32,000 nucleotides of DNA from Flavobacteriaceae bacterium (lineage in GTDB: Bacteria > Bacteroidota > Bacteroidia > Flavobacteriales > Flavobacteriaceae): contig OZ245049.1 of assembly GCA_965224465.1 (NCBI GenBank), forward strand, positions 390,001-422,000. The letters are read 5' to 3'. This document shows, one piece after another, positions 1-30,147 of the stretch; the stretch's first letter is position 1; each line of letters opens with the position of its first letter. The notes below the pieces were generated by a model that was given only the letters and a program-made list of their open reading frames with translations, was not told the origin of the DNA and did no database searches. A program made the translations under genes and the position numbers.

Positions 1-266
1 TGTCTTTAAAGCCTTTTAAAGCAGTATCAGTATTTCCGGGTTGCCCACTACTTGTTAAAACTTCCTTATTGTAAATATCTACAACCGTAAATGTTTTTGA
101 TGGTTCTGCGTAAGTTGCTGCTATTGTTTTGTTTCTTACACCGTGCGTTGTAGACTCTCCTGCTTTAACAAAATCATTTGGTGTCATTTTATTTGCAGAA
201 GTCAAATGATTTTGGTCTTTTCCGAAATTTAAAACACTAGGACTATCTAAAAGCATATAAATTATA
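1..266 (-). pseudogene. 5'-truncated fragment of a polymorphic-toxin C-terminal domain (third copy of the CTD of ORF 10713..11951); continues off the left window edge
   Basis: nt 1-266 align without gaps to nt 10982-11247 at roughly 95% identity, and more loosely to about 6686-6940. Homology ends abruptly at 266, where the IS terminal repeat begins. Confidence 0.75.
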
Positions 267-1680: not shown

Positions 1681-2323
1681 CAGTTATCCTTAAAAACTTG
1701 CCATTTACGCCATCTATTCTGTAAACTTTAATGTCTTTAAGGTTATATTTTTCATTTCCATCTAATACAACTTGCCATTCTGGTTTTGCATTTGGGAATT
1801 CGTTTAAATTATTGTGTGTTAAATTAAACCCTGTAACCTGATAATTTTCAATGTCTTTTTTTGCAATTCTCTTTACTATTTCTATAGCTTCAGCCCAACA
1901 TATTTTATAGCCTTTTTCGTAGTCTATTACTTTCGTTATTTTTCCTTGTTCATTGTAATGAGTTTCTTTATTTATTTTAGAATTACCATTTTCATATTTA
2001 AATAAACTCCATCTTATTTTATTGTTTTTATACCTTATCCATTTAGAAATATTTATTTTTTTGTTTATATAGACATTTGTCACATCATTATCACCTAGAT
2101 TCAAATATTCATTTTTATAATTTTCATTATCAAGTAAAATTAAATCACCTTCTTTATTTTTTAGTTGCTTTTGTATGTTCTGATCAAGTACCAACTCCTC
2201 TTTAGAAATTTTAAAAACAGGATAATTATAATGGCAAGTATTATTATTAATTAAATATCCTTTAGGAACAGAGGAACAATTAGTAAAAAAAATACTTAAT
2301 AATAAAATATATAAATATTTCAT
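1652..2323 (-). CDS. putative immunity lipoprotein, paralog c of three; 3' end replaced by IS sequence
   Basis: Lipoprotein signal MKYLYILLLSIFFTNC. The C-terminal half is near-identical to 2396..3064 and 3137..3805. The last 12 or so codons (ITGTVNSTLSE) differ from the paralog tail (TTRIITTHH) because they read into the IS right end. Confidence 0.6.
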   Translation of the reverse strand: MKYLYILLLSIFFTNCSSVPKGYLINNNTCHYNYPVFKISKEELVLDQNIQKQLKNKEGDLILLDNENYKNEYLNLGDNDVTNVYINKKINISKWIRYKNNKIRWSLFKYENGNSKINKETHYNEQGKITKVIDYEKGYKICWAEAIEIVKRIAKKDIENYQVTGFNLTHNNLNEFPNAKPEWQVVLDGNEKYNLKDIKVYRIDGVNGKFLRITGTVNSTLSE

Positions 2324-2395
2324 ATTATTTTAATTTAGAATATTGTTGTAATTTTTCCCACTGCCATTTGTAGGTGCGCCTCGTTAACTACTGGC

Positions 2396-3064
2396 TTAGT
2401 GGTGAGTTGTTATTATTCTAGTTGTCCTTAAAAACTTGCCATTTATGCCATCTATTCTGTAAACTTTAATATCTTTAATGTTATATTTTTCATTTCCATC
2501 TAATACAACTTGCCATTCTGGTTTTGCATTTGGGAATTCGTTTAAATTATTGTGTGTTAAATTAAACCCTGTAACCTGATACTTTTCAATGTCTTTTTTT
2601 GCAATTCTCTTTACTATTTCTATAGCTTCAGCCCAACATATTTTATAGCCTTTTTCGTAGTCTATTACTTTCGTTATTTTTCCTTGTTCATTGTAATCAA
2701 ATTCTTTGAATATATTTATATAACTATTCAAATATTTAAATTCAACCCATTTTATTTTCCCTAGATGGTCATATCTTATATATTTAGCTATGTTTATTTG
2801 TTTATTTGTTTGTTTATTTGTTATGTATTCATCTTTCGAATATCTAAATTCATTTTTAAAATATTTATTATCTGTCGTAACAGTATCTTCTTCCTTTTTT
2901 TTCAATTGATAAAGAATTTCGTTATTAAGTGTTAATTCTTCTTTATTAATTTTAAAAATGGGGTAATTATAATGGCAAGTATTATTATTAATTAAATATC
3001 CTTTAGGAACAGGGGAACAATTAGTAAAACAAATACTTAACAATAAAATATATAAATATTTCAT
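2396..3064 (-). CDS. putative immunity lipoprotein, paralog b
   Basis: Lipobox signal peptide. Lies in the tandem 741-bp unit downstream of the metallopeptidase-type effector. Confidence 0.6.
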   Translation of the reverse strand: MKYLYILLLSICFTNCSPVPKGYLINNNTCHYNYPIFKINKEELTLNNEILYQLKKKEEDTVTTDNKYFKNEFRYSKDEYITNKQTNKQINIAKYIRYDHLGKIKWVEFKYLNSYINIFKEFDYNEQGKITKVIDYEKGYKICWAEAIEIVKRIAKKDIEKYQVTGFNLTHNNLNEFPNAKPEWQVVLDGNEKYNIKDIKVYRIDGINGKFLRTTRIITTHH

Positions 3065-3136
3065 ATTATTTTAATTTAGAATATTGTTGTAATTTTTCCC
3101 ACTGCCATTTGTAGGTGCGCCTCGTTAACTACTGGC

Positions 3137-3805
3137 TTAGTGGTGAGTTGTTATTATTCTAGTTGTCCTTAAAAACTTGCCATTTACGCCATCTATTCTG
3201 TAAACTTTAATATCTTTAAGGTTATATTTTTCATTTCCATCTAATACAACTTGCCATTCTGGTTTTGCATTTGGGAATTCGTTTAAATTATTGTGTGTTA
3301 AATTAAACCCTGTAACCTGATACTTTTCAATGTCTTTTTTAGCAATTCTCTTTACTATTTCTATAGCTTCAGCCCAACATATTTTATAGCCTTTTTCGTA
3401 ATCTATTACTTTCGTTATTTTTCCTTGTTCATTGTAATGGGTTTCTTTGAAGATAGGTTTTGTGCCATTGATGTAAACAAAACTTACTCTTTTAATTGTT
3501 CTGTTTTTTCTATATAAAATCCATTTATCAATGCCTAATTGTTTGCTTGTTTGGTAATTTGCAATACTTCCACTAGATAAAACAGAAAATAGATTTTTAT
3601 AATTCTCATTGTCTGATATGACAATATCCCCGTTTTCGTCTTTTGATTGTTTTAAAATATTTGGATTAAGGACTAATTCTTCTTTAGTTATTTTAAAAAT
3701 AGGTTCGTTGTAATGACATGTATTATCATTTGCTAAATATTCTTTAGGAACAGAGAAACAATTAGTAAAACAAATACTTAACAATAAAATATATAAATAT
3801 TTCAT
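3137..3805 (-). CDS. putative immunity lipoprotein, paralog a (directly coupled to effector 3807..4946)
   Basis: Its start lies 1 nt after the effector stop. Lipobox signal MKYLYILLLSICFTNC. Confidence 0.6.
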   Translation of the reverse strand: MKYLYILLLSICFTNCFSVPKEYLANDNTCHYNEPIFKITKEELVLNPNILKQSKDENGDIVISDNENYKNLFSVLSSGSIANYQTSKQLGIDKWILYRKNRTIKRVSFVYINGTKPIFKETHYNEQGKITKVIDYEKGYKICWAEAIEIVKRIAKKDIEKYQVTGFNLTHNNLNEFPNAKPEWQVVLDGNEKYNLKDIKVYRIDGVNGKFLRTTRIITTHH

Positions 3806-3806
3806 A

Positions 3807-4946
3807 TTATTTTAATTTAGAATATTGTTGTAATTTTTCCCACTGCCATTTGTAGGTGTGTTTTTTATGATTATTATAATCCATATAATTGTCTGTTTTT
3901 GCGTCCTTAAATTTATGTATACTTTGAAAGGCATCCCTTAATCCTAAAGCGTGCATTATTTCGTGAATTATATTTTCTGATTTAATGTTTCCTTCAGGGT
4001 CTAATACCAAATAGGCGATTCCAGTACCTGCAGGAGATATACCTCCTGCAGCCTTAAAAGATCCCTCTTCTGGAATGTCTTTTTCATTGATACATTTTTG
4101 ATTGATAAAATAAATAGTTAATTTGTTTGTATCTTTATTGTGTTTATTATTAATATAAGATAAAATGGTGCTTATTTTACTCCTTTCAATATAGTTTCCA
4201 ATTCTATTGTCAATATTTTTTTTTAGAAAACCATGTTTTTTAAAATTTTCTAAATGTTCACTAATATCGACCATCGTTGGATTATTATTAGTGATATTGA
4301 TATCAATTAAAGCAGGATTTAAACCTTTTTTAAGGTCTTTTTCTAAATCTAATTTGTTGATTTCTTTACCTAAAGCGAATTCATCTTTTTCATCTCCTTG
4401 AATTTCGACAAAACACCATTCAAGGTCAATAGTTTTGGGTTTAGGGTAAAAGATATTAATTGCTCCAACAATTAATTCATCATCCGCTTTTATTAAGATT
4501 TGAGCAGAAGTTACATTGTTGTTTTTACAGGTTATTTTTACTTTTTTAGCATCTTTTAAGTTCTTTGGTTCAAAAGTAAAATCGGCATGAGGTTCAAAAC
4601 TTATAGTTTCATAGTCATCTGCTTTTCCTTTTTTCGTCCAATCAAGTTCCAATTCGACTGTTTGGTCTTTTCTTAAACTTAACCAAGAAGGAATGTATTG
4701 CTCTCCTCGTATTTTTTCTGAGAGCGGCTTGTATTCTTTTTTAAGTTTTTCGTAGTCCGATACAACAATTTTTTCTTTAGGGATCCTATCAAAACCGAAA
4801 ACGCCCCTCATAATATCTTTATTTCTTGCTATAAATTCGATTTTAAAAGGTTTTTTAGTAGCAATTGGCTGTAAATATCTAGTTAATGTTTCTCCGTCTT
4901 CAAATGTTATTCTAAAACCTGTTTTTTTCATTTTTTGAGTTCCCAT
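3807..4946 (-). CDS. T6SS-associated effector with a C-terminal metzincin/M43-like zinc metallopeptidase domain (379 aa)
   Basis: HEIMHALGLRD (HExxHxxGxxD) at about nt 3941-3970, followed by DNYMDY, which resembles the N[FY]MDY Met-turn block of the M43 pappalysin/cytophagalysin family. TAATG stop-start overlap with the upstream hcp copy. Confidence 0.6.
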   Translation of the reverse strand: MGTQKMKKTGFRITFEDGETLTRYLQPIATKKPFKIEFIARNKDIMRGVFGFDRIPKEKIVVSDYEKLKKEYKPLSEKIRGEQYIPSWLSLRKDQTVELELDWTKKGKADDYETISFEPHADFTFEPKNLKDAKKVKITCKNNNVTSAQILIKADDELIVGAINIFYPKPKTIDLEWCFVEIQGDEKDEFALGKEINKLDLEKDLKKGLNPALIDINITNNNPTMVDISEHLENFKKHGFLKKNIDNRIGNYIERSKISTILSYINNKHNKDTNKLTIYFINQKCINEKDIPEEGSFKAAGGISPAGTGIAYLVLDPEGNIKSENIIHEIMHALGLRDAFQSIHKFKDAKTDNYMDYNNHKKHTYKWQWEKLQQYSKLK

Positions 4947-5584
4947 TACTTTTTCACTTTTTGTTTAATCACTTTTAACTCAATCTGTTCTAAATCGTTA
5001 CTTATTTCGATATTACTAAGGGTATCATTAGGTAGCAAATTACCATTGTACTCAAAATCATACTTAGCATCATCTAAATTAATTGTTATAAAACCTCCTC
5101 TACGGTTTTTCGTTTCTATATTTAATAGTATAATATCATTATCTTTATAATCTTGAATTTCTTCATTATCGGAATTCGTTAAATAATACCTTATTATTTC
5201 TTTCTCATCATCTCTCTCTAACACCGTTGGTTCAACTTCTATAAAAGGATCTTCAAACACCCAATTTTCTATTTTTTTAACATCTTTTATTTTAACAGCA
5301 CCACACGTTATCGTTAAATTAATGTGTAAGGGCAAATTGTCTTGATTGTCAAATTCTTCTGTAAGACCTACAATATAGGCTTTATGGAATTCTACTTTGT
5401 ACAAGGTTTTAAACTCATCTCTGTCATAAAATATTAATTCACCGCTAAAACTAGCATTTGGTGAAAACATATAGTGATACAAATCGCTATCAAACCCAGT
5501 AGATTCAAACATTAAATGGAATGGGCTTTTACGCGTTGTGGTCGTAGGGTTTCCCGTAATATCTTTTAGTTTGTATAATACCAA
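4946..5584 (-). CDS. tssD: 5'-truncated TssD/Hcp copy with C-terminal extension type B (212-aa ORF; only a junction-created TTG start)
   Basis: nt 5221-5578 are more than 99% identical to the intact hcp (12224-12581). It lacks the first 22 codons, and its C-terminal 70 or so aa differ from the other two copies. Confidence 0.7.
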   Translation of the reverse strand: MVLYKLKDITGNPTTTTRKSPFHLMFESTGFDSDLYHYMFSPNASFSGELIFYDRDEFKTLYKVEFHKAYIVGLTEEFDNQDNLPLHINLTITCGAVKIKDVKKIENWVFEDPFIEVEPTVLERDDEKEIIRYYLTNSDNEEIQDYKDNDIILLNIETKNRRGGFITINLDDAKYDFEYNGNLLPNDTLSNIEISNDLEQIELKVIKQKVKK

Positions 5585-5811
5585 TTACAATCCAAAATAA
5601 CCGATATAAATAGTTTATTTTACGTTCTAGCGTTGTTAAAAAACAGAACGATAGCTATCCTTAGATTTTACGCCTAGCTAGAACAAAAAATTAATTTCAT
5701 TTCTAAACCGTCACTTGAAAATGTATTTGGTATTAATACAGCTACCAACAGCAATCTGTAGATAAAATATTTACTTCAAGTTAACACAGAATCTTAGATA
5801 TTAACTGGACT
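5579..5811. repeat. R element copy 1 (long form)
   Basis: About 98% identical to 9852..10084. The core AATTACAATCCAAAATAAC...GTTGTTAAAAAACAGAACGAT is shared with 13326..13403 and 17769..17929. Confidence 0.85.
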
Positions 5812-6417
5812 TTATTCATACTTAGTTTTTCGTAAATCTTTATACTTACAGTTTTTTGTTCTGTAACACTCAATAACATCACTATTTATATTTTTATATA
5901 AAATTTCTAATAAGCCTTCTTTTAGTTCGAAAAAATTCCAATTTGCTGGAATATCAATATAATTTGCTTCTTTGTCATTTTTCATTGCGAAAATTAGAAC
6001 ACGTATTCCTAAATAACCTTTTGTTCGATTTCCTTGAGCGTTCTCTAAAAACGGCTTAATGGACAAGCTGTCATTTGTACACTTTATATTGTGTACGTAA
6101 AAAATACATTTTTTTTTATAGGTATAACTTGTTGTCTTTACTAATAATTCCTTTTCGTTTAAATTAAAAATGTAGCTTATAAAATTAGAACTACTATTAG
6201 TTAACTCATCGGAATATTTAGTACCTGTATGTTTTACATCTTTTAATAATTTTAATACGCTTTTAAAATCAATTTTGGTTTGTAATCCTTTTTTTTTTAT
6301 ACGTGTACTATCAGAAACAACAATTTTAATTATTGGAATTTCTTTATTTGTTTTAATAGTTTTTTTAAAACAAACTAAAAATGGTATAATAAATAATATT
6401 ATAAAATAGTTTTTCAT
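5812..6417 (-). CDS. putative immunity lipoprotein for the orphan Cys/His toxin CTD (homolog of 10085..10711)
   Basis: Signal peptide. Shares a conserved C-terminal block with 10085..10711: IKPFLENA.G..T.GY...RVLIFAMKNDKEAN.IDIP...LLEILYKNI.SDVIEC.RTK.CKYKDLRKTK.E. Confidence 0.55.
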   Translation of the reverse strand: MKNYFIILFIIPFLVCFKKTIKTNKEIPIIKIVVSDSTRIKKKGLQTKIDFKSVLKLLKDVKHTGTKYSDELTNSSSNFISYIFNLNEKELLVKTTSYTYKKKCIFYVHNIKCTNDSLSIKPFLENAQGNRTKGYLGIRVLIFAMKNDKEANYIDIPANWNFFELKEGLLEILYKNINSDVIECYRTKNCKYKDLRKTKYE

Positions 6418-6419
6418 AA

Positions 6420-7178
6420 TTATTTCTTTTTATTTCTAAGTTGATAGATTTCTAATTTCATAGGGTATTTATCTCTCCAAGCGTAAACTGTTCCTAAAAA
6501 ATAATTTTCAAGCTGCTTACATGTTCTTGGTATTACACCAACTATTTGGTCAATAAATTGAAATTCAAAAGTGTCATCTTTTTTATTTACAATAACTGTA
6601 AAAGAATGGTAATCATCGTTATAAGCACCAATAAAAACATAATTGCCATTATCTGGACACTTGCTTTTCATATAATCAATTGGACTGTCTTTAAAGCCTT
6701 TTAAAGCAGTATCAGTATTTCCGGGTTGCCCACTACTTGTTAAAACTTCCTTATTGTAAATATCTACTACAGTAAATGTTTTTGATGGTTCTGCGTAAGT
6801 AGCTGCTATTGTTTTGTTTCTTACACCGTTAGTTGTAGATTCTCCTGCTTTTTCATAGTCTTTTGGAGTGTCTCTACCTACTATTTGGTCTTTTCCTAAA
6901 ATTAAACTTGAAGGATTGTCTAAAAGTTTATAAATTATGTGTTTATGTGTATCCGTACAATGATGATAATCAGAGTATTTATTAGCATTTCGCTGTTTAT
7001 TATAATTTGCTATTGCATACACATTAATTTCTTCAATTTTCTCTTTACTAAACTCCCATTCGTTAAGGGTTTCGTAAACTATTTTCATACACCCACAAAA
7101 CAAGTTTTCATAATCCCCAGTTGAATACCCCTCTTCATTATCATTAGCTAAAAAACGAATATAGAATGCTACACTTTA
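6420..7178 (-). pseudogene. orphan toxin module: Cys/His CTD paralog plus a 75-nt remnant of the conserved effector N-terminal domain (ORF-track ORF 6420..7103)
   Basis: nt 7104-7178 match 11405-11480, which encodes ...SVAFYIRFLANDNEEGYSTGDYENLFCGC. Homology stops 14 nt after the stop of the upstream immunity gene. There is no N-terminal domain or native start. Confidence 0.7.
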
Positions 7179-7192
7179 TTCATGCTAAAACC

Positions 7193-8023
7193 CTAAATTC
7201 TTTTTAGAACATATTTTAAAGAATCTTTTTTTTCGAGAAATAGATTGTTGTTTTTGATATAGAAGTACCATTCTTCTTCGTTTAACCTGATTAAATACTT
7301 TTTGTTACTTTCACTTTTTGGATTAGCTAATGTGCTATAGTTGGTATTCGAGTACGTTTTAAAAATATCAGAACCAATGATTTTTTTTTCTAGGATGTCA
7401 AAATAAATTTTAGATTCTAGTAAATTGTTACAGGAGTCATATAGATCAAAAGTTTTTTTGAAAAAATAAACATCTCTTTGCAATCGATAATAAAAAAGAT
7501 CATTAAATATAAAACTCTTTAAATTAGAACAATAATGGATACTATCTTTACTTGTAATAATACTAAATTGATTTTTCCTCTTTACTAAAAAAATAGAATC
7601 TTTATTCTGGTAATGATGAGTATTAAATTTGGTTAGATAATAAGTACTGTCATTAATCGCAACTACTCGTAATTTTCTATAATCAAATTTTGAACTATTA
7701 GCATAAATCTTTTTTTGTTTCCAATTACTAATATGAATAAATTCGTATGGATAACTTTCGTTATTTCTAATTGAAGTATCATCAAATCCTTTTAAATTTA
7801 AATTATAAACAAAGTCGACAGGCATCCAAAAGGAATTGTCTATTGATTTTTTATTATAAACAAAATCGGAGGAGTCCAAACTCATAAAACGGGTGGTTTT
7901 AAGAGTGTCTTGTTTTGTTTTTGTGTTTAATTCTTTTTTAAATTGTTGGTCTTTAGATTTTTTTTTTGAATTACAAAAAACTAAAGAAAAGCAAAGTAAA
8001 ATGATAAAAAATATTTTTTTCAT
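7193..8023 (-). CDS. putative immunity lipoprotein for the Tae4-like effector (276 aa)
   Basis: Lipoprotein signal MKKIFFIILLCFSLVFC. Starts 6 nt downstream of the effector stop. Confidence 0.5.
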   Translation of the reverse strand: MKKIFFIILLCFSLVFCNSKKKSKDQQFKKELNTKTKQDTLKTTRFMSLDSSDFVYNKKSIDNSFWMPVDFVYNLNLKGFDDTSIRNNESYPYEFIHISNWKQKKIYANSSKFDYRKLRVVAINDSTYYLTKFNTHHYQNKDSIFLVKRKNQFSIITSKDSIHYCSNLKSFIFNDLFYYRLQRDVYFFKKTFDLYDSCNNLLESKIYFDILEKKIIGSDIFKTYSNTNYSTLANPKSESNKKYLIRLNEEEWYFYIKNNNLFLEKKDSLKYVLKRI

Positions 8024-8029
8024 ATCTAT

Positions 8030-9223
8030 TTATTTCAATTCCCAATACCATATTTCATCAGCTCCATAGTAACCCGATCCTGTCTGACCGTGGTAAATAA
8101 CATCTATGTGACTAACACCTCCATCACTTTTATCCCATAAAAAAACAATCCCATTGGCAGAATTTGGATTGAATTCACTAGTGTTTTTAAATTTTTCAGG
8201 TATAAAAACATTATTATGTAACCAATCAGCTAAACCTTTGGAGGATCTGGCAAATCCATCTCTTGTTTTGTTTATACTAGGGTAAGAAAACAAATTAAAA
8301 TTAGAATTAGTTAATCCATAAGAAAGACGAATAGCACATTGATTATAATACTTATCATGATCAATAGTTACATCTTGTCTGTGAGCCCCAACTTTATCGG
8401 TAGGGTATTTATGTATTAATTCACCTAAACTTGGAAGTCCTCCTTTATTTTTAAAACTCCAATTAAACTTGTTTTTTTCTTCTTTTAATCTTTCTTTTTC
8501 TAATTTTAAACTAAAAAACTTTTTATTTTCAAGGGATTTATACTCACCGTCTGATACAAGTATTGTTCTGTTCTTTTCAAATTCAGAATTTACTTCTCCT
8601 AAAAACTCTCCATCTGAATTACTATAAAAATATATTTTTGATTTTATAACAATAGTCTCAACCTTAAAACACCCACAAAACAAGTTATCATAATCCCCAG
8701 TTGAATACCCCTCTTCATTATCATTAGCTAAAAAACGAATATAGAATGCTACACTTTCTTCTGTTGTAATATCAACTTCCACTTCTATTTCAGAACCAAA
8801 TTTAGCTAAAATATTATCACTAAACGTTGTTTCAGATTTTTGCTTAATTTTTGCTGTAACCCCTTTAACTTCTACAAATTTGTCTTTTTCCTGAGATATT
8901 TCTATTTCTATATACCCATCGTCGTCTTCCCATTGTTCATCAGGACCTCCTTTTTTAATTAGAAAAGGTATTACTGGTTTTTGTAGTGCGGTTAGTAATG
9001 TAGTTATAGTTTCGTTTTTTTTACTGTCGTTAGTTTGGGTTAAGAGGTCTACAAAAACATGTTTATCGTTTTCATCCTTTTCTAAAGGGAGTTTATCTTT
9101 TTCAATATTGTATCCTGTCGTATCTCTTAATTCTACTAGAGGTATAAATTCTGTCCATTCTAAGCCTTCTCCTGTGTATGAATTACTAGGGTTTCCTGTT
9201 TCACTTACTGTTATGGTTCCCAT
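8030..9223 (-). CDS. T6SS-associated effector: conserved N-terminal domain plus a Tae4-like peptidoglycan amidase CTD (397 aa)
   Basis: YYNQCAIRLSYGLTN and GIVFLWDKSDGGVSHIDVIY resemble the catalytic Cys and His blocks of Tae4 (NACPIRMSYVLN ... GHVTLW). The N-terminal 190 aa are near-identical to 10713..11951. Confidence 0.65.
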   Translation of the reverse strand: MGTITVSETGNPSNSYTGEGLEWTEFIPLVELRDTTGYNIEKDKLPLEKDENDKHVFVDLLTQTNDSKKNETITTLLTALQKPVIPFLIKKGGPDEQWEDDDGYIEIEISQEKDKFVEVKGVTAKIKQKSETTFSDNILAKFGSEIEVEVDITTEESVAFYIRFLANDNEEGYSTGDYDNLFCGCFKVETIVIKSKIYFYSNSDGEFLGEVNSEFEKNRTILVSDGEYKSLENKKFFSLKLEKERLKEEKNKFNWSFKNKGGLPSLGELIHKYPTDKVGAHRQDVTIDHDKYYNQCAIRLSYGLTNSNFNLFSYPSINKTRDGFARSSKGLADWLHNNVFIPEKFKNTSEFNPNSANGIVFLWDKSDGGVSHIDVIYHGQTGSGYYGADEIWYWELK

Positions 9224-9224
9224 A

Positions 9225-9857
9225 CTAACTATTTTGTTTTTTAGAGTTTAATTCTATTTTCATAGTATCTGAAGTTATATTAAAACCATTTATTTTATTG
9301 TCTTCAAGTAATTGTCCTTGGTGTTCCAGTGGTGCATTAATTGAACTTAAATCTATATCTGTTTGTTTACCTGTCATATCTTGTGTTTTTAGGATTAAAA
9401 ACACTTTTACACCTTTTTGTATCTTAGACACTCTTTCTCCTTGACTGTCTTGGAAATAGGTTTCTAAGACAGCTCCTTCTCCACTATTTTCTAACACCGT
9501 TGGTTCAACTTCTATAAAAGGATCCTCAAACACCCAATTTTCTATTTTTTTAACATCTTTTATTTTAACAGCTCCACACGTTATCGCTAAATTAATGTGT
9601 AAGGGCAAATTGTCTTGATTGTCAAATTCTTCTGTAAGACCTACAATATAGGCTTTATGGAATTCTACTTTGTACAAGGTTTTAAACTCATCTCTGTCAT
9701 AAAATATTAATTCACCGCTAAAACTAGCATTTGGTGAAAACATATAGTGATACAAATCGCTATCAAACCCAGTAGATTCAAACATTAAATGGAATGGGCT
9801 TTTACGCGTTGTGGTCGTAGGGTTTCCCGTAATATCTTTTAGTTTGTATAATACCAA
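9225..9857 (-). CDS. tssD: 5'-truncated TssD/Hcp copy with C-terminal extension type A (210-aa ORF, TTG start only)
   Basis: Near-identical to codons 23-231 of 11953..12648. The junction with the R element is at the same nucleotide as in 4946..5584. Confidence 0.7.
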   Translation of the reverse strand: MVLYKLKDITGNPTTTTRKSPFHLMFESTGFDSDLYHYMFSPNASFSGELIFYDRDEFKTLYKVEFHKAYIVGLTEEFDNQDNLPLHINLAITCGAVKIKDVKKIENWVFEDPFIEVEPTVLENSGEGAVLETYFQDSQGERVSKIQKGVKVFLILKTQDMTGKQTDIDLSSINAPLEHQGQLLEDNKINGFNITSDTMKIELNSKKQNS

Positions 9858-10084
9858 TTACAATCCAAAATAACCGATATAAATAGTTTATTTTACGTTC
9901 TAGCGTTGTTAAAAAACAGAACGATAGCTATCCTTAGATTTTACGCCTAGCTAGAACAAAAAATTAATTTCATTTCTAAACCGTCACTTGAAAATGTATT
10001 TGGTATTAATACAGCTACCAACAGCAATCTGCAGATAAAATATTTACTTCAAGTTAACACAGAATCTTAGACATTAACTGGACT
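9852..10084. repeat. R element copy 2 (long form)
   Basis: See copy 1. It fills the whole immunity-to-hcp intergenic space. Confidence 0.85.
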
Positions 10085-10711
10085 TTATTCAGACTTAGTT
10101 TTTCGTAAATCTTTATACTTACATTTTTTTGTTCTGTTACACTCAATAACATCACTATCAATATTTTTATATAGGATTTCTAATAATTCTTTTCTTAATT
10201 TAAGAGGATTCATTTTTTCTGGTATATCAATAAAATTTGCTTCTTTATCGTTTTTCATAGCGAAAATTAGAACACGATTTTGTGTATAACCTCGTGTAGT
10301 TTTCCCAAAGGCGTTTTCTAAAAAAGGCTTTATGCTTATGTCGTTTTTAATGTGTTTTAAATTATGTACATAAAATTTTAAGTTATTTTTGTATTCATAA
10401 CTGATTGTTTTTATTACAAACTTTCGATTATTAAGTAGAAAAACAGAATCTAAAGTACGTGCTCTATCAAACATCCAATCCTTATTTTTTTTTCCAACAT
10501 TTTTAACATTTTTAATATTAGATAATAAGTTATTAAAATTTATTGCAGTTTGTAGGTGTTTTTTCTTTATAACTTTTATAGAGTCTAAAGTTAAATTATT
10601 AAAAGAAGTATTAGAATTACTCTTATCAAATATAATTTTATTATTTGGTTTGGTTCCTTTACAACTAGACGTCAGTAATAGGATAAATAATACTAAAAAA
10701 TAACTTTTCAT
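10085..10711 (-). CDS. putative immunity lipoprotein for effector 10713..11951 (208 aa)
   Basis: Lipobox LLLTSSC. The start is 1 nt after the effector stop (TAA A ATG). Confidence 0.55.
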   Translation of the reverse strand: MKSYFLVLFILLLTSSCKGTKPNNKIIFDKSNSNTSFNNLTLDSIKVIKKKHLQTAINFNNLLSNIKNVKNVGKKNKDWMFDRARTLDSVFLLNNRKFVIKTISYEYKNNLKFYVHNLKHIKNDISIKPFLENAFGKTTRGYTQNRVLIFAMKNDKEANFIDIPEKMNPLKLRKELLEILYKNIDSDVIECNRTKKCKYKDLRKTKSE

Positions 10712-10712
10712 T

Positions 10713-11951
10713 TTACTTCGTTTTATTTCTTAATTGATACAGTTCTAATTTCATAGGGAAATTAGAAGCGTAATCATCTATATTAATTAAAAATTTTAAA
10801 TTTTCTAATTTTTCACCTGTATAATATTGAACACCTACCATTTGGTCAATAAATTGAAATTCAAAAGTGTCATCTTTTTTATTTACAATAACTGTAAAAG
10901 AATGGAAATCATCGTCATAAGCGCCAATAAAAACATAATTGCCATTATCTGGACACTTGCTTTTCATATAATCAATTGGACTGTTTTTAAAGCCTTTTAA
11001 AGCAGTATCAGTATTTCCGGGTTGCCCACTACTTGTTAAAACTTCCTTATTGTAAATATCTACAACAGTAAATGTTTTTGATGGTTCTGCGTAAGTTGCT
11101 GCTATTGTTTTGTTTCTTACACCGTTAGTTGTAGATTCTCCTGCTTTAACAAAATCATTTGGTGTCATTCTATTCGCAGAAGGCAAATGATTTTGGTCTT
11201 TTCCAAAATTTAAAACACTAGGACTATCTAAAAGCATATAAATTATATGCTTGTGCGTATCTGTACAATGATGATATCTATTTGCATCTCCGCCTCCGCT
11301 GTATTTTGCACAATTAGCTCTTGCGTACACTTTAATTTCTTCAATTTTCTCTTTACTAAACTCCCATTCGTTAGGGGTTTCGTAAACTATTTTCATACAC
11401 CCACAAAACAAGTTTTCATAATCCCCTGTTGAATACCCCTCTTCATTATCATTAGCTAAAAAACGAATATAGAATGCTACACTTTCTTCTGTTGTAATAT
11501 CCACTTCCACTTCTATTTCAGAACCAAATTTAGCTAAAATCTTATCACTAAACGTTGTTTCAGATTTTTGCTTAATTTTTGCTGTAACCCCTTTAACTTC
11601 TACAAATTTGTCTTTTTCCTGAGATATTTCTATTTCTATATACCCATCGTCGTCTTCCCATTGTTCATCAGGACCTCCTTTTTTAATTAGAAAAGGAATT
11701 ACTGGTTTTTGTAGTGCGGTTACTAATGTAGTTATAGTTTCGTTTTTTTTACTGTCGTTAGTTTGGGTTAAGAGGTCTACAAAAACATGTTTATCGTTTT
11801 CATCCTTTTCTAAAGGGAGTTTATCTTTTTCAATATTGTATCCTGTCGTATCTCTTAATTCTACTAGAGGTATAAATTCTGTCCATTCTAAGCCTTCTCC
11901 TGTGTATGAATTACTAGGGTTTCCTGTTTCACTTACTGTTATGGTTCCCAT
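10713..11951 (-). CDS. T6SS-associated effector: conserved N-terminal domain plus an unclassified Cys/His CTD (412 aa)
   Basis: Starts 1 nt after the hcp stop (TAG T ATG). Shares its N-terminal domain with 8030..9223 up to the LFCGC junction. The CTD has the conserved blocks YHHCTDTHKHIIY, DD[FY]HSFTVIV and FIDQ. Confidence 0.65.
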   Translation of the reverse strand: MGTITVSETGNPSNSYTGEGLEWTEFIPLVELRDTTGYNIEKDKLPLEKDENDKHVFVDLLTQTNDSKKNETITTLVTALQKPVIPFLIKKGGPDEQWEDDDGYIEIEISQEKDKFVEVKGVTAKIKQKSETTFSDKILAKFGSEIEVEVDITTEESVAFYIRFLANDNEEGYSTGDYENLFCGCMKIVYETPNEWEFSKEKIEEIKVYARANCAKYSGGGDANRYHHCTDTHKHIIYMLLDSPSVLNFGKDQNHLPSANRMTPNDFVKAGESTTNGVRNKTIAATYAEPSKTFTVVDIYNKEVLTSSGQPGNTDTALKGFKNSPIDYMKSKCPDNGNYVFIGAYDDDFHSFTVIVNKKDDTFEFQFIDQMVGVQYYTGEKLENLKFLINIDDYASNFPMKLELYQLRNKTK

Positions 11952-11952
11952 A

Positions 11953-12648
11953 CTAACTATTTTGTTTTTTAGAGTTTAATTCTATTTTCATAGTATCTGA
12001 AGTTATATTAAAACCATTTATTTTATTGTCTTCAAGTAATTGTCCTTGGTGTTCCAGTGGTGCATTAATTGAACTTAAATCTATATCTGTTTGTTTACCT
12101 GTCATATCTTGTGTTTTTAGGATTAAAAACACTTTTACACCTTTTTGTATCTTAGACACTCTTTCTCCTTGACTGTCTTGGAAATAGGTTTCTAAGACAG
12201 CTCCTTCTCCACTATTTTCTAACACCGTTGGTTCAACTTCTATAAAAGGATCCTCAAACACCCAATTTTCTATTTTTTTAACATCTTTTATTTTAACAGC
12301 TCCACACGTTATCGCTAAATTAATGTGTAAGGGTAAATTGTCTTGATTGTCAAATTCTTCTGTAAGACCTACAATATAGGCTTTATGGAATTCTACTTTG
12401 TACAAGGTTTTAAACTCATCTCTGTCATAAAATATTAATTCACCGCTAAAACTAGCATTTGGTGAAAACATATAGTGATACAAATCGCTATCAAACCCAG
12501 TAGATTCAAACATTAAATGGAATGGGCTTTTACGCGTTGTGGTCGTAGGGTTTCCCGTAATATCTTTTAGTTTGTATAAGGTGTATTCTGCTCTTAATAA
12601 CGTTCTTTCTTTTCCATCTATAATGGCGATGCCTTTAAAACTACTCAT
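11953..12648 (-). CDS. tssD: intact type VI secretion tube protein TssD/Hcp (Bacteroidota type) with an approximately 90-aa C-terminal extension (231 aa)
   Basis: Matches the Bacteroidota TssD pattern: F..GKE...L...Y.L......G.P......FESTG...L..YMF......G.IF.D......K.EF..AYIV...E.F......PL.I.L.I....VKI......NW. It is the only copy with an ATG and the first beta-strand region. Confidence 0.8.
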   Translation of the reverse strand: MSSFKGIAIIDGKERTLLRAEYTLYKLKDITGNPTTTTRKSPFHLMFESTGFDSDLYHYMFSPNASFSGELIFYDRDEFKTLYKVEFHKAYIVGLTEEFDNQDNLPLHINLAITCGAVKIKDVKKIENWVFEDPFIEVEPTVLENSGEGAVLETYFQDSQGERVSKIQKGVKVFLILKTQDMTGKQTDIDLSSINAPLEHQGQLLEDNKINGFNITSDTMKIELNSKKQNS

Positions 12649-13215
12649 GGTTTTTCAATTTTTGATTCATCTTTTAATTGGGTACAGCTTTTTTTAAATC
12701 CATAACTAGCACCCATAATCTCACAATAGCAATCCCGAACATGATGGTATATCCATATAGTTCACAATACAGGATGGGCTTATTGTTAGGGTGTGCCTAT
12801 TTTTTTAAACGTAGGTCAAATATATAAAATAATGTTATACGCCGTGTGTTTTTTATAATTAAATCCATCATTTAGGGGGTAATTCCCCTTTGCTCTTCCT
12901 AGATATACAAAACAGTCTTTCGGAGGGTACCTCGCATGCCTGAGTAGAGGCTGTTGATTACATGTATCGTACTGTTTATACTGTTATTACAGGAGATTTA
13001 CGACTCATTTTCTATACGTCTTTTTAAAATCTAACAAACAAAACAATCACAGTTATGGTTTGATACGCTTATTATGCAACGGTTATGAATACATAAAATA
13101 TGAATTAAAAATAGCATTTTAATCCTTTTACTTTATAAATCCAATTGTAATTATTATTTACGACCGCTACTTAATAAAGCACAATTCACACATTTGTTTA
13201 AAACTACTGAGCTAA

Positions 13216-13310
13216 GTCAATAACCTTAGGGCAAGTTCACGAGAAAAGAAAAAAACCTTAATCATTTAGATGCAAATATCGGAGAATTAAACCCACTGAT
13301 GGGATTTAAA
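13216..13310 (+). repeat. approximately 95-nt intergenic element with three short stem-loops, copy 1
   Basis: Aligns with 30049..30147: GTCAATAACCT..GGGCAAG..CACGAG...AAAAGAAAAAACCT.AATCATTT.GATGCAA..ATCGG.GAATTAAACCCACT..TGGGATTAAA. Confidence 0.7.
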
Positions 13311-13325
13311 AAAGGAGGTTTACGT

Positions 13326-13403
13326 ACAATACCAATTACAATCCAAAATAACATATATAAATAGGTTGTTTTGCGTGCTGTCGTTGTTAAAAAACAGAAC
13401 GAT
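13326..13403. repeat. R element copy 3 (core only)
   Basis: AATACCAATTACAATCCAAAATAACATATATAAATAGGTTGTTTTGCGTGCTGTCGTTGTTAAAAAACAGAACGAT. Closest to copy 4. Confidence 0.8.
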
Positions 13404-13779
13404 TGTAAGATAGGGAAACTCAAAATAGTCTATCTATTTAGCGGAAGAGGACCTCCTACCTATTGGTTACAACGAATAAAAGCAGGTGCTAATAAGCAAA
13501 CAAAAAATACAAACGTAGCAACGTAAGGGGAAACGCATGCCAAAACCCTGCTTACCAATACTTATGGAGTGTCTATAAACAGTAAAAACATATCCCACAA
13601 AAGAGCGTGAGAGTAAATGACCTAAAAACAGGTGGTACCTATTAAGGTTTTTGTCGAGAGTCTCTTAATTAATTCGCGGAATCCCTATAGTAATATCTTT
13701 TGAGCCGGTATAGTCAACAGGATGTTCATGCTGGGCGCTACGCACCGCACGAACACTTAGTTATTAGCTGTAGTACTTG

Positions 13780-15609
13780 TTATTCATTCAATTCATCTTC
13801 AGTTACAATTCTAATATTCCCCGCGAATTTAGCAATAATATTCTTTTTAGTTACAGCTTCAGGAAATGCCATTGCTAACACTTTTTTAGGTCTAGACATT
13901 GCTACATAAATTAATCTTTTCTTCTCACTAGGAAAGGTATTGTCAGAATTACAAATGTCTTCAAAAAGTATATTGCTAGCGTGTTTTCTATCGTTAAAGA
14001 AAATTAATACTGAATCTAAAGTTTTACCTTTCACTTGGTGAATAGTAGTAATTGGAATGTTAGATTCCGAATACGATTTTTTAAAATGAATGTTAACAGA
14101 TTCATTTAGTGTTATATCTTTATTGAAAAATTTAGATTTTCTATTTCTTAGATTAAAATTCACGTCATAATGTAAGCCCAATTTTTCTTTCATAAAAATT
14201 TGAGTTTGATTTGTCCAATCTGCAACTGTTAATTCAAAACTTGGTAGCTCAATTAGAATCTGAAATAAAAGTGAATTAAAAAGATGGTCTTCTTTTGAAT
14301 TTCTTTCAATTTCCTTTAACTGATGATAGTCACTTTCTGGATTTAATAACTTTATAGAAATAGTACGTATTTCGTTTATGGAATTTTTGATATCATTACC
14401 CTTAAAACGATTTTTTGCCGTAATAATTTCTTTTGGCAACTCAATACCCCAAGGTCTTTCTTCTGTTGTTTTTCCTAATAATTTATTCTTTAATGAGTTT
14501 CCTCTAACTACAATATTGTTCTTTTCAAAATTGTTGGTCGAGCAAAGTTCTTCATAGTGTTTAATAATTGATTGAAGATTGTTCTCAGAATATTTATAAA
14601 TAATAATTGAATTGTCTTTTGTAGGATTGCCAACAGAACTTATTTTTGCGTCATTAGCTTTTCTTAGTATAGAAAAAATGTCAATAATATTTTGAGGTGA
14701 CCGCCTGTTGTCTGTTAGGTCAAATGAATTCCAACTATCGTCTTCATTATACTTTTTTAAAAATTCATTTGGATTTGCATCTCTCCATTGATAGAGGCTT
14801 TGATAAGGGTCGCCAATTAATTCTATGTTTTTTAATCCTTGCTTAGACAATTCTTCAAAGATTGCGTGTTGAATTAAAGAATTATCTTGAGCCTCATCAA
14901 TTATGATAAAAGGAAACCTTAAAGATAACCATTGACAAATTTTCGGTTTTTTCCTTAAAATATGGAGAGCTATATATGCAGAATCTCCTGTTGAGATTAA
15001 GCCTTTAGTAAATTGTGTATTCTTAATTAATTTGCAATAATTTTTAAACTTATCTAGTTCAACTTTATCTGGTGATGGTTGATTACCTTTCACAGAATAA
15101 CTTCCATCTTGTTCAATTCTAATTTCGCTAGGTGGATATAAATGATAGATACTTCTATTATTTTTTGCTTTATATGCATCAAAGTTTAAAGGTCTTTTTA
15201 AACCTTCTTTTGTTTTTCCATTTTTGTCAATGTAATTGATTTTCCACATTTCATCTAGAATATTTGTGTGGTCAAGGATTTTAGGTCTTTTAAACTTTCT
15301 ATCTAATATATTATAAAAAGGAAGTGTAATAAATTTATTTATAAAACTATCAATAGTGGAAACGTGATTAGGAAAGCTTAAAATTTTCCCGCTCAGTTTT
15401 GAATAAGATTCGTTTATTTCATCCTTTGCTGAGTTCGTAAAAGAAAGACAAGCAATACCTGAATATGAATTGACCTCTTTTAATTGCTGTAATTCTATTA
15501 TTTTTTGTGCAATTGTAGTTGTTTTACCGCTTCCAGGACAGGCGTTTAATATGATTTTACCTCTTGCTTGAAGATATGCCGTTCTTTCTTCATTTAAGTC
15601 ATAAATCAT
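13780..15609 (-). CDS. gajB: UvrD/PcrA/Rep-like SF1 helicase, GajB-like (609 aa)
   Basis: Helicase motifs CPGSGKTTT (I), IIIDEAQDNS (II), GDPYQSLYQWRDA (III), NRRSP (IV), TIHQVKGKTLDSV (V) and YVAMSRPKKVL (VI). ATGA start-stop overlap with the upstream OLD-family gene. Confidence 0.8.
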   Translation of the reverse strand: MIYDLNEERTAYLQARGKIILNACPGSGKTTTIAQKIIELQQLKEVNSYSGIACLSFTNSAKDEINESYSKLSGKILSFPNHVSTIDSFINKFITLPFYNILDRKFKRPKILDHTNILDEMWKINYIDKNGKTKEGLKRPLNFDAYKAKNNRSIYHLYPPSEIRIEQDGSYSVKGNQPSPDKVELDKFKNYCKLIKNTQFTKGLISTGDSAYIALHILRKKPKICQWLSLRFPFIIIDEAQDNSLIQHAIFEELSKQGLKNIELIGDPYQSLYQWRDANPNEFLKKYNEDDSWNSFDLTDNRRSPQNIIDIFSILRKANDAKISSVGNPTKDNSIIIYKYSENNLQSIIKHYEELCSTNNFEKNNIVVRGNSLKNKLLGKTTEERPWGIELPKEIITAKNRFKGNDIKNSINEIRTISIKLLNPESDYHQLKEIERNSKEDHLFNSLLFQILIELPSFELTVADWTNQTQIFMKEKLGLHYDVNFNLRNRKSKFFNKDITLNESVNIHFKKSYSESNIPITTIHQVKGKTLDSVLIFFNDRKHASNILFEDICNSDNTFPSEKKRLIYVAMSRPKKVLAMAFPEAVTKKNIIAKFAGNIRIVTEDELNE

Positions 15610-17768: not shown

Positions 17769-17929
17769 TAATAAATTACAATCCAAAATAACATATATAA
17801 ATAGGTTGTTTTACATTCTAGCGTTGTTAAAAAAACAGAGCAATAGCTATCTATCCTTCCATTTTTTTACCTAACTATTACAAAAAATAATCACATTTCT
17901 AAACCGTCACTTGGAAATGTATTGGGTAT
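17769..17929. repeat. R element copy 4 (core plus distal block)
   Basis: The core is near-identical to copy 3. The distal block CATTTCTAAACCGTCACTTGGAAATGTATTGGGTAT matches copies 1 and 2. Confidence 0.8.
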
Positions 17930-30048: not shown

Positions 30049-30147
30049 AGTCAATAACCTCGGGGCAAGCCCACGAGGCATGAAAAAGAAAAAACCTCAA
30101 TCATTTCGATGCAAGCATCGGGAATTAAACCCACTTGTGGGATTAAA
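30049..30147 (+). repeat. approximately 95-nt three-stem-loop intergenic element, copy 2
   Basis: See 13216..13310. Stems: CCTCG(G)GGG/CCC(A)CGAGG, CGATG/CATCG and CCCA/TGGG. The first two have CAAG loops. Confidence 0.7.

Follow-up and report, generated by a model that had tools for sequence, protein, structure and literature searches.

In the window (the whole 32,000-nt stretch of DNA that was analyzed), the ORF list places every gene of the array on the minus strand, where one intact hcp gene is followed by two 5'-truncated copies, each heading its own toxin and immunity genes. This layout had been proposed in a first-pass annotation, and both the ORFs and self-BLAST agree with it. In the order in which the strand is read, the features are:

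12649..13323 (-): non-coding region upstream of hcp1; absent from modules 2 and 3
11953..12648 (-): hcp1, intact specialized TssD/Hcp, 231 aa (Pfam, PDB profile, Foldseek)
10713..11951 (-): module-1 effector, 412 aa; EffN_A plus toxin ToxX; identical to P0019
10085..10711 (-): ImmX, putative immunity lipoprotein for ToxX (position, ORF)
9225..9857 (-): hcp2, 5'-truncated, core plus extension ExtA; codons 1-23 missing
8030..9223 (-): module-2 effector, 397 aa; EffN_A plus Tae4 amidase domain
7193..8023 (-): putative Tae4 immunity gene, 276 aa (position only)
6420..7181 (-): orphan ToxX' (ORF 6420..7103) behind 93 nt from the 3' end of EffN_A (7089-7181)
5812..6417 (-): ImmX', immunity gene of the orphan toxin (position, mosaic similarity to ImmX)
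4946..5584 (-): hcp3, 5'-truncated, core plus a different extension (ExtB); codons 1-23 missing
3807..4946 (-): module-3 effector, 379 aa; zincin HEIMH motif read from the translation
3137..3805, 2396..3064 and 1652..2323 (-): three tandem paralogous immunity-type lipoprotein genes (within 1652..3805), 84-90% identical in DNA
266..1681 (-): IS256-family element closing the array; transposase ORF 387..1619
1..273 (-): fragment of a third ToxX copy, past the IS element; 96% identity to 10982-11255

No T6SS core genes were found in the 32 kb that hold the modules, and the region is probably an accessory island of tandem Hcp-effector-immunity modules in an uncultured Flavobacteriia genome.

The earlier assignment of the 231-aa protein to TssD was confirmed. 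Pfam TssD (PF17642) covers it at profile positions 2-128 (E = 9e-25), the PDB profile match is F. johnsoniae Hcp1 (6bdc, E = 2e-12), and the best Foldseek matches are 6bdc, 8gra and 7yw0. The protein, identical to public protein P0014, consists of a TssD core (aa 1 to ca. 144) and ExtA, of ca. 90 aa; the variable extension is all-beta. A motif scan located a Bacteroidetes-type -7 motif (TAnnTTTG) at 12824 only, upstream of hcp1, and none upstream of the truncated copies. In the Pfam profile search of the array ORFs, no family was matched besides TssD and Tae4 (PF14113, in the module-2 effector, 28.3 bits against a cut-off of 27); the product of 7193..8023 matched none.

The homology of both truncated copies to hcp1 ends at one common base, beside the TTA of Leu24, and the single cut site noted at first therefore stands. 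The missing part comprises codons 1-23 rather than 1-22: the ORFs begin with TTG-GTA, which is MITE sequence, and then Leu24. In agreement, PF17642 matches hcp2 and hcp3 at positions 27-128 only, and hcp2 covers residues 24-231 of hcp1 at 100% (tblastn). The TTG does lie at the junction, but it is not the only possible start, as public gene calls begin both copies at an in-frame ATG, Met46 (P0015, P0011). The predicted products are 210-212 aa long. All copies have open ORFs and the effectors downstream of the truncated genes are intact, which fits recent loss and kept function alike. The MITE-derived MVLYKL start recurs in P0001 and P0010, from the 5,241,564-nt contig of the source genome, and in one metagenome product (P0004); at least five hcp paralogues, bearing four different extensions, share the codon-24 junction. 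The truncated Hcps are probably non-functional, because they lack both the first two predicted strands (residues 6-10 and 13-21) and the only recognizable promoter motif. The claim that residues 1-23 are essential draws on the alignments to Pfam and PDB entries and on what is generally known of the Hcp fold, the structural model being of low confidence in the Hcp domain (pLDDT ca. 55).

The likeness of the three 360-nt cores (at least 98.9% identity) cannot be chance. Compared base by base, they differ at one position (hcp1/hcp2), three (hcp2/hcp3) or four (hcp1/hcp3), against the 1-3 in about 358 nt given originally. Self-BLAST aligned 5217-5578 with 12218-12579 at 98.9%. Past the core, similarity falls abruptly to unalignable at the ...EPTVLE codons. 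Five C-terminal extensions with 23-33% amino-acid identity to one another occur on cores that are 98-100% identical; by this comparison of sequences, the Hcp core behaves as a constant region at the evolutionary scale.

The near-identity had been thought confined to the core. The cores are indeed 98.9-99.7% identical, but the tracts extend beyond hcp, ca. 300 nt upstream (hcp2 vs. hcp3) and 820 nt downstream (hcp1 vs. hcp2). The hcp1/hcp2 tract (8669-9851 vs. 11397-12579; 99.4% over 1183 nt) takes in the extension and ca. 190 effector codons, so that for part of the modules identity does exceed the proposed recombination handle. These codons specify EffN_A, the ca. 190-aa N-terminal domain of the module-1 effector ending in ...FCGC, whose DNA is 99.4% identical to the N-terminus of the 397-aa module-2 effector. 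For hcp2 and hcp3, self-BLAST aligned 5217-6061 with 9490-10334 at 94.2%. Here, 10150-9490 and 5877-5217 are 96-100% identical through the MITE, save where core meets extension (last ca. 70 nt, 89%); the immunity 3' end (ca. 65 nt), intergenic spacer, MITE and core agree at 97-100%; the toxin and immunity parts beside the two junctions reach only 53-81%. As first described, ImmX and ImmX' are diverged over most of their length, with 53-67% identity over the first two thirds in a mosaic pattern; the remaining third shows 75-96%, and its last ca. 65 nt 96%. The toxin copies are likewise mosaic (6389-7181 vs. 10683-11489, 85.6%), and the EffN_A remnant before ToxX' matches the module-2 effector (7089-7181 vs. 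8669-8761, 97.8%).

What the truncated copies carry at the junction is the right end of a MITE, 154-159 bp long, which has terminal inverted repeats (TACCAAATACATTTCCAA; ca. 15 of 18 positions match when the ends are aligned) and a 3-bp TWA target duplication. Its copies in the window and in related metagenome contigs are:

17772..17928 (-): complete MITE, TTA/TTA duplication; intergenic, at the far island edge
13330..13409 (-): partial MITE consisting of the right-hand ca. 80 nt; on the distal edge of the region upstream of hcp1
9852..10005 (-): hybrid MITE at the hcp2 5' junction; flanks TAA left, TTA right
5579..5732 (-): hybrid MITE at the hcp3 5' junction; identical to 9852-10005
L001 2335-2493 and L002 1574-1732: MITE inside hcp, TTA/TTA duplication
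L002 950-1107: MITE, TAA/TAA duplication

Matched target duplications were seen at three independent sites (window and L001/L002). An empty site (ACC-TTA-TAC, with a single TTA) is present in hcp1 and L005, and a filled one (ACC-TTA-[MITE]-TTA-TAC) in L001 and L002, where the MITE simply interrupts, at Leu24, an hcp that is otherwise complete and adds 54 in-frame codons, five of them stops. These two hcp-internal MITEs are mutually identical. At both window junctions the flanks are mismatched (TAA left, TTA right): the sequence on the left (tggtagctgtat) recurs unchanged as the left flank of L002 950-1107, and hcp from codon 24 onward makes up the right flank. As these are the flanks of two different MITEs, they point to a deletion between two MITEs. 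The common cut, initially read as the boundary of a silent cassette, is thus a MITE scar. No autonomous IS sharing the inverted ends was found in the sequences examined.

Related contigs hold the states expected before such a deletion. Both parent MITEs occur in L002 as direct repeats whose starts lie 624 nt apart, one on either side of the hcp upstream region and the hcp 5' end. In L005, the order is ImmX, MITE (full-length, at the position equivalent to 13330..13409), a 680-nt upstream region and intact hcp-ExtB (P0017, 233 aa); window module 3 is 99.6% identical to this hcp-ExtB region over 1047 nt. The region 12649..13323 is 93.5% identical to L005 655-1398, itself 5' of an intact hcp, and 92% identical to the L001 and L002 sequence before the hcp 5' end. 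The insertions in L001 and L002 and the intact module 3 of L005 indicate that the truncated copies are deletion derivatives of once-complete, self-sufficient modules, which argues against purpose-built cassettes.

The likely history is that a MITE-MITE deletion truncated hcp once and that the resulting block was then copied. Each original module would have been complete, with its own upstream region of ca. 680 nt, an hcp encoding the constant TssD core and a variable ca. 90-aa C-terminal extension, a cognate effector and at least one immunity gene. The MITE would have entered the TTA of codon 24 and then recombined with a same-orientation MITE just past the preceding immunity gene, deleting the upstream region with codons 1-23 and leaving one hybrid MITE. 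The two junctions are identical, on this history, because the single event was later copied: the block of immunity 3' end, MITE and truncated core would have spread through either unequal crossing-over or conversion of one hcp core by another. Later, Tae4 and its immunity gene would have displaced ToxX'/ImmX' downstream of the constant N-terminal domain of the effector. Direct support comes from the MITE, with target sites seen both empty and filled, from the mismatched flanks, from the pre-deletion states and from the mosaic identity. The exact intermediate of these two modules in the source genome is deduced from the related contigs; from the upstream MITE to hcp, the spacing in L001/L002 is shorter (about 394 nt vs. 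about 675 nt). Transposition of the upstream MITE into the codon-24 TTA (adjacent deletion) would yield an identical product in one step.

It was originally suggested that the array is a reservoir of silent cassettes, in which the core serves as a handle and deletion or conversion regularly places a new set behind the intact 5' end. The near-identical cores with extensions that are unalignable at the DNA level, the five extension types on one core in the lineage, the intact hcp-ExtB in L005 and the activation of orphan rhs by recombination in Salmonella (PMC3967940) would all suit this reading, which we nevertheless consider unlikely. The cut is the scar of a MITE that elsewhere simply disrupts complete hcp genes; the high-identity tracts reach well past hcp; related dolphin-oral genomes have single complete modules and no cassettes; and a deletion would also lose immunity against the toxin of sibling cells. 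Before hcp, L005 is paralogous to the sequence upstream of hcp1 (93.5%), while farther downstream it matches module 3 (99.6%), so that L005 resembles the module-3 ancestor and not an hcp1 x hcp3 recombinant. As to the handle itself, the core is constant and the longest run that hcp1 and hcp3 share without a difference measures 244 nt (difference table), making recombination of hcp1 with a truncated copy physically possible as judged from sequence, but no evidence of programmed or frequent switching was found in the window or the related contigs. A downstream module could now and then be re-armed through homologous recombination with hcp1, which would be incidental and not a designed function.

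Independent insertion of the MITE at codon 24 of each module through a strong target preference, followed by separate truncations, is improbable. The recurrence of the junction in at least five paralogues with four extensions speaks for it, and after the MITE right end L005 and window position 13330 read TTGTACGTAAAC, which resembles the hcp target TTATACAAAC and hints at such a preference. Against it, the window junctions are identical hybrids over ca. 660 nt, L001 and L002 have the same MITE sequence inside hcp, and the cores testify to common copying between paralogues, by which one insertion could spread. That the truncated genes yield shortened "minor" Hcp subunits for heteromeric rings carrying the cognate effectors is very improbable, as is their expression from the MITE-borne TTG or Met46: intact ORFs in every copy, the effector-recognizing heterohexamers of Bacteroidales minor Hcps (PMC13213661) and the presence of PDB 9vne among the Foldseek fold matches are outweighed by the absence of TssD profile positions 1-26 with two predicted N-terminal strands, the absence of the upstream -7 motif, and the L001/L002 junction, plainly an insertional disruption with stop codons.

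Under the MITE-scar history, the extension probably acts as an adaptor for the N-terminal domain of the effector. Module 2 has the ExtA of hcp1 and an effector N-terminal domain common to module 1, so Hcp1 could serve both; intact Hcp1-ExtA can presumably still serve the Tae4 effector, and module 2, by its sequence, may not be silent. Module 3 appears to be disarmed, with its immunity genes retained.

The array is a variant, new in form, of the orphan-module polymorphic toxin arrays. The parallel with the rhs/cdiA orphan toxin-immunity arrays (Poole et al. 2011, PMC3150448; Koskiniemi et al. 2014, PMC3967940), drawn from the outset, holds: a full gene is followed by 5'-truncated copies that retain a portion of the constant region, each with a variable C-terminus and immunity gene; the constant/variable junction is sharp; and an orphan could become active by recombining with the full gene. 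Here, however, the T6SS tube protein domain (TssD) takes the place of the Rhs core or CdiA as constant region, variability lies in an adaptor-like extension and a separate effector gene, and truncation is traced to MITE-mediated deletion of a once-complete module, not to displacement by incoming DNA. In the sequential displacement arrays of Vibrio cholerae T6SS auxiliary clusters (Kirchberger et al. 2017, PMC5361080), a new effector-immunity pair likewise lies behind a conserved segment, with the old toxin fragment and immunity gene kept downstream. The displacement of ToxX'/ImmX' by Tae4, which left 93 nt of the constant effector domain in place, is of this type, but it occurred at the effector N-terminal domain (the ...FCGC junction) inside one module, and the hcp truncations are a separate process.

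Bacteroidales T6SSiii minor Hcps (PMC13213661) are also TssD paralogues that adjoin and co-segregate with the effector they are thought to recognize. They have low mutual similarity, lie inside the T6SS locus and are described without such an extension, whereas the cores here are near-identical, variability is confined to the C-terminal extension and the modules form an accessory island, with T6SS core genes absent from the 32 kb. The pilE/pilS silent cassettes resemble the array in having promoterless, 5'-truncated copies downstream of one expressed copy; here, neither non-reciprocal conversion nor a dedicated initiation element is in evidence, the boundaries are transposon scars, and the copies are few, each with whole downstream genes. 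Specialized or evolved Hcps (Hcp-ET; PMC8262886, PMC6730261) share a polymorphic C-terminal extension of >60 aa and an immunity gene downstream. The extension here, in contrast, has no toxin-family match and a separate effector follows, making an adaptor more likely. Relatives do have true fusions of an effector to an Hcp of this family (L019, P0013); in L019, a homologue of the module-3 effector is fused straight onto an Hcp core.

No terminator-like sites were found between the modules in the window, and read-through transcription across them is therefore possible. The IS256-family element at 266..1681 has a copy in L001 that agrees with it at 100% over 1416 nt and whose product matches PF00872.

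All genes of the array lie on the minus strand. They and the copies of the repeat that abuts two of the hcp genes were located as follows, where ExtA and ExtB denote C-terminal extensions of Hcp.
11953..12648, minus strand: hcp1, intact, 231 aa, with ExtA (module 1)
10713..11951, minus strand: 412-aa effector of module 1
9225..9857, minus strand: hcp2, 5'-truncated, with ExtA (module 2)
8030..9223, minus strand: 397-aa effector of module 2, with Tae4
6420..7181, minus strand: ToxX', orphan toxin
5812..6417, minus strand: ImmX', immunity partner of ToxX'
4946..5584, minus strand: hcp3, 5'-truncated, with ExtB (module 3)
3807..4946, minus strand: 379-aa metallopeptidase effector of module 3
9852-10005: junction MITE, abutting hcp2
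5579-5732: junction MITE, abutting hcp3
17772-17928: MITE, full
13330-13409: MITE, partial

The product of hcp1 was matched by the TssD profile PF17642 at profile positions 2-128 (87.5 bits, E = 9e-25; the curated cut-off is 25.8 bits), and those of hcp2 (73.8 bits) and hcp3 (76.7 bits) were matched at positions 27-128 only. The Hcp assignment made in the first-pass annotation, and the missing N-terminal part of both downstream copies, were thereby confirmed. A sequence profile of the family retrieved Flavobacterium johnsoniae Hcp1 (6bdc, E = 2e-12) and Bacteroidales TssD structures; Foldseek, run with a structural model of hcp1 in which the pLDDT of the Hcp domain was only ca. 55, returned 6bdc (E = 2e-6), 8gra, and 7yw0 as the top matches. 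No annotated T6SS core components were recognized among the ORFs of the window (the Pfam scan covered the ORFs of the array). Self-BLAST and base-by-base comparison upheld the report of three near-identical cores (360 nt each; pairwise differences at 1, 3, and 4 positions) and of a cut in the same place, as the homology of hcp2 and hcp3 to hcp1 ends at one common base. Two details required correction: codons 1-23 are absent, not 1-22, and the TTG at the junction is not the only possible start, because an internal ATG (Met46) is present and is used by the public gene calls for both truncated copies. Past the codons for ...EPTVLE, the similarity of the cores falls abruptly to unalignable; a second constant/variable junction (...FCGC) is found in the effector. 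The extension beyond the TssD domain comprises ca. 90 aa (i.e. more than 60 aa, as in specialized Hcps) and had no toxin family match in Pfam, the sole weak match being DUF2196 (E = 0.03, below its cut-off). It was modeled as a small all-beta domain (residues 150-226, pLDDT ca. 80), and a separate effector gene lies downstream.

The sequence abutting hcp2 and hcp3 is one of a family of repeats, of which the window has four copies and the related metagenome contigs L001, L002, and L005 have five more; a scan of the JGI metagenome collection returned none. The element is 154-159 bp long and non-coding, without an ORF. Its ends form imperfect inverted repeats (TACCAAATACATTTCCAA at one end and, as the reverse complement of the other, TACCAATTACAATCCAAA, with ca. 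15 of 18 positions matching in a manual alignment), and it is flanked by 3-bp TWA duplications (TTA/TTA and TAA/TAA at three independent sites). In L001 and L002 (ENA metagenome assembly ERZ25073217), the hcp start and 24 codons are followed by TTA-[element]-TTA and then by the remainder of the gene, an arrangement that adds 54 in-frame codons containing five stops. The corresponding empty site, a single TTA (Leu24), is present in hcp1 and in the hcp of L005. Given these filled and empty sites, the inverted ends, and the TWA duplications, the junction element is identified as a MITE that transposed into hcp. An insertion sequence sharing its ends was not found in the window, L001, L002, or L005, where only MITE copies and a few weak, four-mismatch matches were recovered; the ends of the IS256-family element in the window are unrelated to those of the MITE.

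The contig L002 also carries a second MITE in the same orientation, located upstream, just past the preceding immunity gene (950-1107, flanks TAA/TAA). The start-to-start distance from this MITE to the hcp-internal copy (1574-1732, flanks TTA/TTA) is 624 nt. Both junction MITEs of the window have mismatched flanks. On the left, TAA comes after tggtagctgtat, the same left flank that the upstream copy in L002 has; on the right, TTA is followed by hcp from codon 25 onward. As is well established for transposons, target duplications that do not match are typically left when two copies of an element recombine. If the sequence between its two MITEs is removed from L002, exactly the junction product of the window is obtained. 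We infer that a MITE inserted in hcp recombined with the upstream MITE of the same orientation, with loss of the intervening upstream region and the 5' end of hcp. Other traces of recombination or conversion among MITE copies may be read from the contigs: the upstream MITE of L002 equals the hcp-internal copy over its first ca. 130 nt and then has the right end of the L001 upstream copy (1711-1868), which itself has mismatched flanks (TAT/TAA).

The state preceding these events is apparent in L005, which reads ImmX (the immunity gene of module 1), MITE, an upstream region of ca. 680 nt, an intact hcp-ExtB (P0017, 233 aa), and the metallopeptidase effector, and which is 99.6% identical to module 3 of the window over 1047 nt. 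By this comparison, L005 shows module 3 before the MITE insertion in hcp and the truncation; taken with L002, it indicates that the truncated copies derive from complete modules with their own upstream regions. The effector in L005 is broken by an IS1595-family transposase gene (2031-3450), and the window has the reverse state, with an intact effector and a truncated hcp; as judged from the two loci, module 3 has been inactivated twice, in different ways. The region upstream of hcp1 (12649-13323) is unusually long (675 nt), contains no ORF of 60 aa or more, and is 92-93% conserved in L001, L002, and L005; it may be a long leader or regulatory region. The only occurrence of the Bacteroidetes-type -7 motif (TAnnTTTG) in the upstream regions lies 176 nt before hcp1, and none was found ahead of hcp2 or hcp3. 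A scan for sigma-70 promoters and terminators gave the same counts as shuffled sequence, and the sigma-70 promoter type is the wrong one for this phylum.

The two junctions appear to share one origin. The blocks 10150-9490 and 5877-5217, which comprise the last ca. 65 nt of an immunity gene, the spacer, the hybrid MITE, and the core, are 96-100% identical, falling to 89% over the last ca. 70 nt at the core/extension boundary; the adjoining toxin and immunity sequences are only 53-81% identical. Since independent deletions would not yield identical hybrid elements, the junction is taken to have been made once and then duplicated or converted. Between hcp1 and hcp2, the identity is 99.4% over 1183 nt, through the extension and ca. 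190 codons of the effector. Plausibly, unequal crossing-over between hcp1 and the core of truncated hcp3 duplicated [ExtA - effector - ImmX - MITE - core]; a Tae4 toxin and its immunity gene would then have displaced ToxX'/ImmX' behind the constant N-terminal domain of the effector, 93 nt of which remain before the orphan toxin (7089-7181). Another rearrangement boundary of the array is marked by the IS256-family element (266-1681, 1416 nt), which has taken the place of the final codons in the third immunity paralogue (1652..2323) and adjoins a third fragment (1-273) of ToxX, the module-1 toxin. Of the three copies in L001 (those listed are at 5298-6713 and 8631-9991), one is 100% identical to it.

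The wider family was assembled by homology search and cluster look-up. The source genome, a contig of 5,241,564 nt, encodes at least four intact hcp paralogues (P0014, which is hcp1, P0002, P0016, and P0005) and at least four MITE-junction copies (hcp2, hcp3, P0001, and P0010). Five extension types in this lineage, with mutual amino-acid identities of 23-33%, are borne on cores that are 98-100% identical; the core of the divergent paralogue P0005 is at 78%. Duplication alone cannot explain this break in identity, which requires either that the cores were subject to gene conversion or that recombination took place where core and extension meet. Outside the lineage, the relatives recovered (63-78% identity) all came from dolphin-oral metagenomes and MAGs. 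The JGI metagenome scan gave 13 hcp loci, all from dolphin-oral samples; each had a single hcp match, and no arrays were seen at the relatives' loci. Where the downstream genes were examined (L003, L004, and L020), one hcp-effector-immunity module was found at each locus. A GTDB genome scan with a single protein had no match, and one with the protein alignment returned one dolphin-oral MAG. In the dolphin-oral contig L019 (3409-5086), hcp reads MSSFKAVAI-stop and resumes at ...TGNPTTT, an internal deletion of roughly codons 10-29. There is a direct fusion of its core to a 535-aa metallopeptidase effector, a homologue of that at 3807..4946, with MORN-like immunity paralogues next. It is a 5' lesion that arose independently in this gene family.

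Bacteroidales minor Hcps recognize the neighboring effector (PMC13213661). On that model, and on that of specialized Hcps (PMC8262886), the constant TssD domain would be expected to become part of the tube, and the predicted all-beta extension to bind the N-terminal domain of the effector encoded downstream. As adaptors, ExtA is predicted to pair with the N-terminal domain common to the 412-aa and 397-aa effectors, and ExtB to pair with the metallopeptidase effector. As ExtA is present in both hcp1 and hcp2, and the 412-aa and 397-aa effectors have that domain in common, intact Hcp1 can plausibly deliver both effectors; module 2 would then be dead in its hcp only, not as a module. No intact Hcp-ExtB was among the products recovered for the source genome, and module 3 is therefore probably disarmed, with its three immunity paralogues persisting.

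The first-pass annotation had likened this locus to rhs/cdiA orphan arrays and to pilS-type silent cassettes, with the hcp core as the recombination handle. Several features of the rhs/cdiA arrays (PMC3150448, PMC3967940) are indeed shared: a full-length gene with 5'-truncated copies behind it in which constant-region sequence is kept, a sharp constant/variable junction, diverse C-termini, and cognate immunity genes. Regarding the handle, the discontinuity between constant core and divergent extensions supports the idea, but the high-identity tracts do not coincide with the hcp core, as that between hcp1 and hcp2 extends well past it; this goes part of the way to one of the outcomes that the first-pass annotation had named as refuting it. 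A purpose-built boundary did not hold up, given the hybrid MITE with mismatched target duplications and the pre-deletion states in L001, L002, and L005. Programmed pilS-type cassettes have intrinsic conserved boundaries that serve conversion, whereas the boundaries of the hcp array are mobile-element scars; a programmed, pilS-like system thus fails the one defining feature for which the sequences were compared. The most striking feature of the locus, the identical truncation, now has an ordinary explanation. The other closest systems are Vibrio cholerae displacement arrays (PMC5361080), Bacteroidales minor-Hcp cassettes (PMC13213661), and Hcp-ET proteins (PMC6730261), the last sharing a C-terminal extension of more than 60 aa. 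No description of 5'-truncated hcp orphans, nor of a MITE in hcp of Bacteroidota, was found in the literature searched. The novelty is that a polymorphic Hcp whose core is near-invariant occurs together with tandem modules and transposon-mediated disarming; the mechanism itself is not new. A more ambitious reading, which we regard as rather unlikely, is that gene conversion keeps the TssD cores uniform as the constant-region handle of a polymorphic T6SSiii Hcp, that extension-effector-immunity sets are swapped between loci and strains, and that MITE-cut or MITE-interrupted modules could be re-armed, whether through MITE excision or because they recombine with an intact hcp. If true, the tube protein would be the basis of an arsenal that is reversible and gated by a transposon.

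One core in this lineage carries at least five extension-effector-immunity sets, and the constant-region/variable-tip logic of polymorphic toxins (Rhs, CdiA, VgrG) is extended to the Bacteroidota T6SS tube protein. The array also offers a concrete case of a small transposon that appears to disarm secretion modules, with the immunity genes staying. When a genome scan turns up repeated genes that are all truncated at one point, a mobile-element scar should be looked for before a cassette mechanism is proposed.

Three other accounts of the junction were rejected. An integron-like attC or site-specific cassette boundary, raised because copies also flank Gabija genes, was dropped in favor of the MITE once filled and empty sites had been seen. 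An RNA element or intron is contradicted by the inverted ends and target duplications, and an Rfam scan of the window at gathering thresholds was empty (a permissive scan of 12600-13800 gave one chance-level match only). An assembly artefact is dismissed, as the junction occurs twice in the window, in P0001 and P0010 of the source genome, and in independent contigs.

Neighboring features were also recorded. A second short dispersed repeat, with no relation to the MITE (ca. 100 nt, 82-83% identity), occurs at 13215-13310, inside the region upstream of hcp1, at 30049-30147, near metal-efflux genes, and in L005 (669-763). A complete Gabija pair (13780-17537, minus strand; GajA, 15606..17537, E = 3e-285; GajB, 13780..15609, E = 1e-103) lies between the full and the partial MITE. 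Just downstream of gajB, ca. 370 nt of non-coding sequence (13410-13780) look, by eye, richer in G+C than their surroundings and also look structured. On the minus strand, this stretch contains no ORF of at least 60 aa, and Rfam gave no match to it even at E <= 1. The partial MITE is cut exactly where the Gabija-side sequence begins, and the Gabija segment may therefore have landed in, or recombined through, a MITE.
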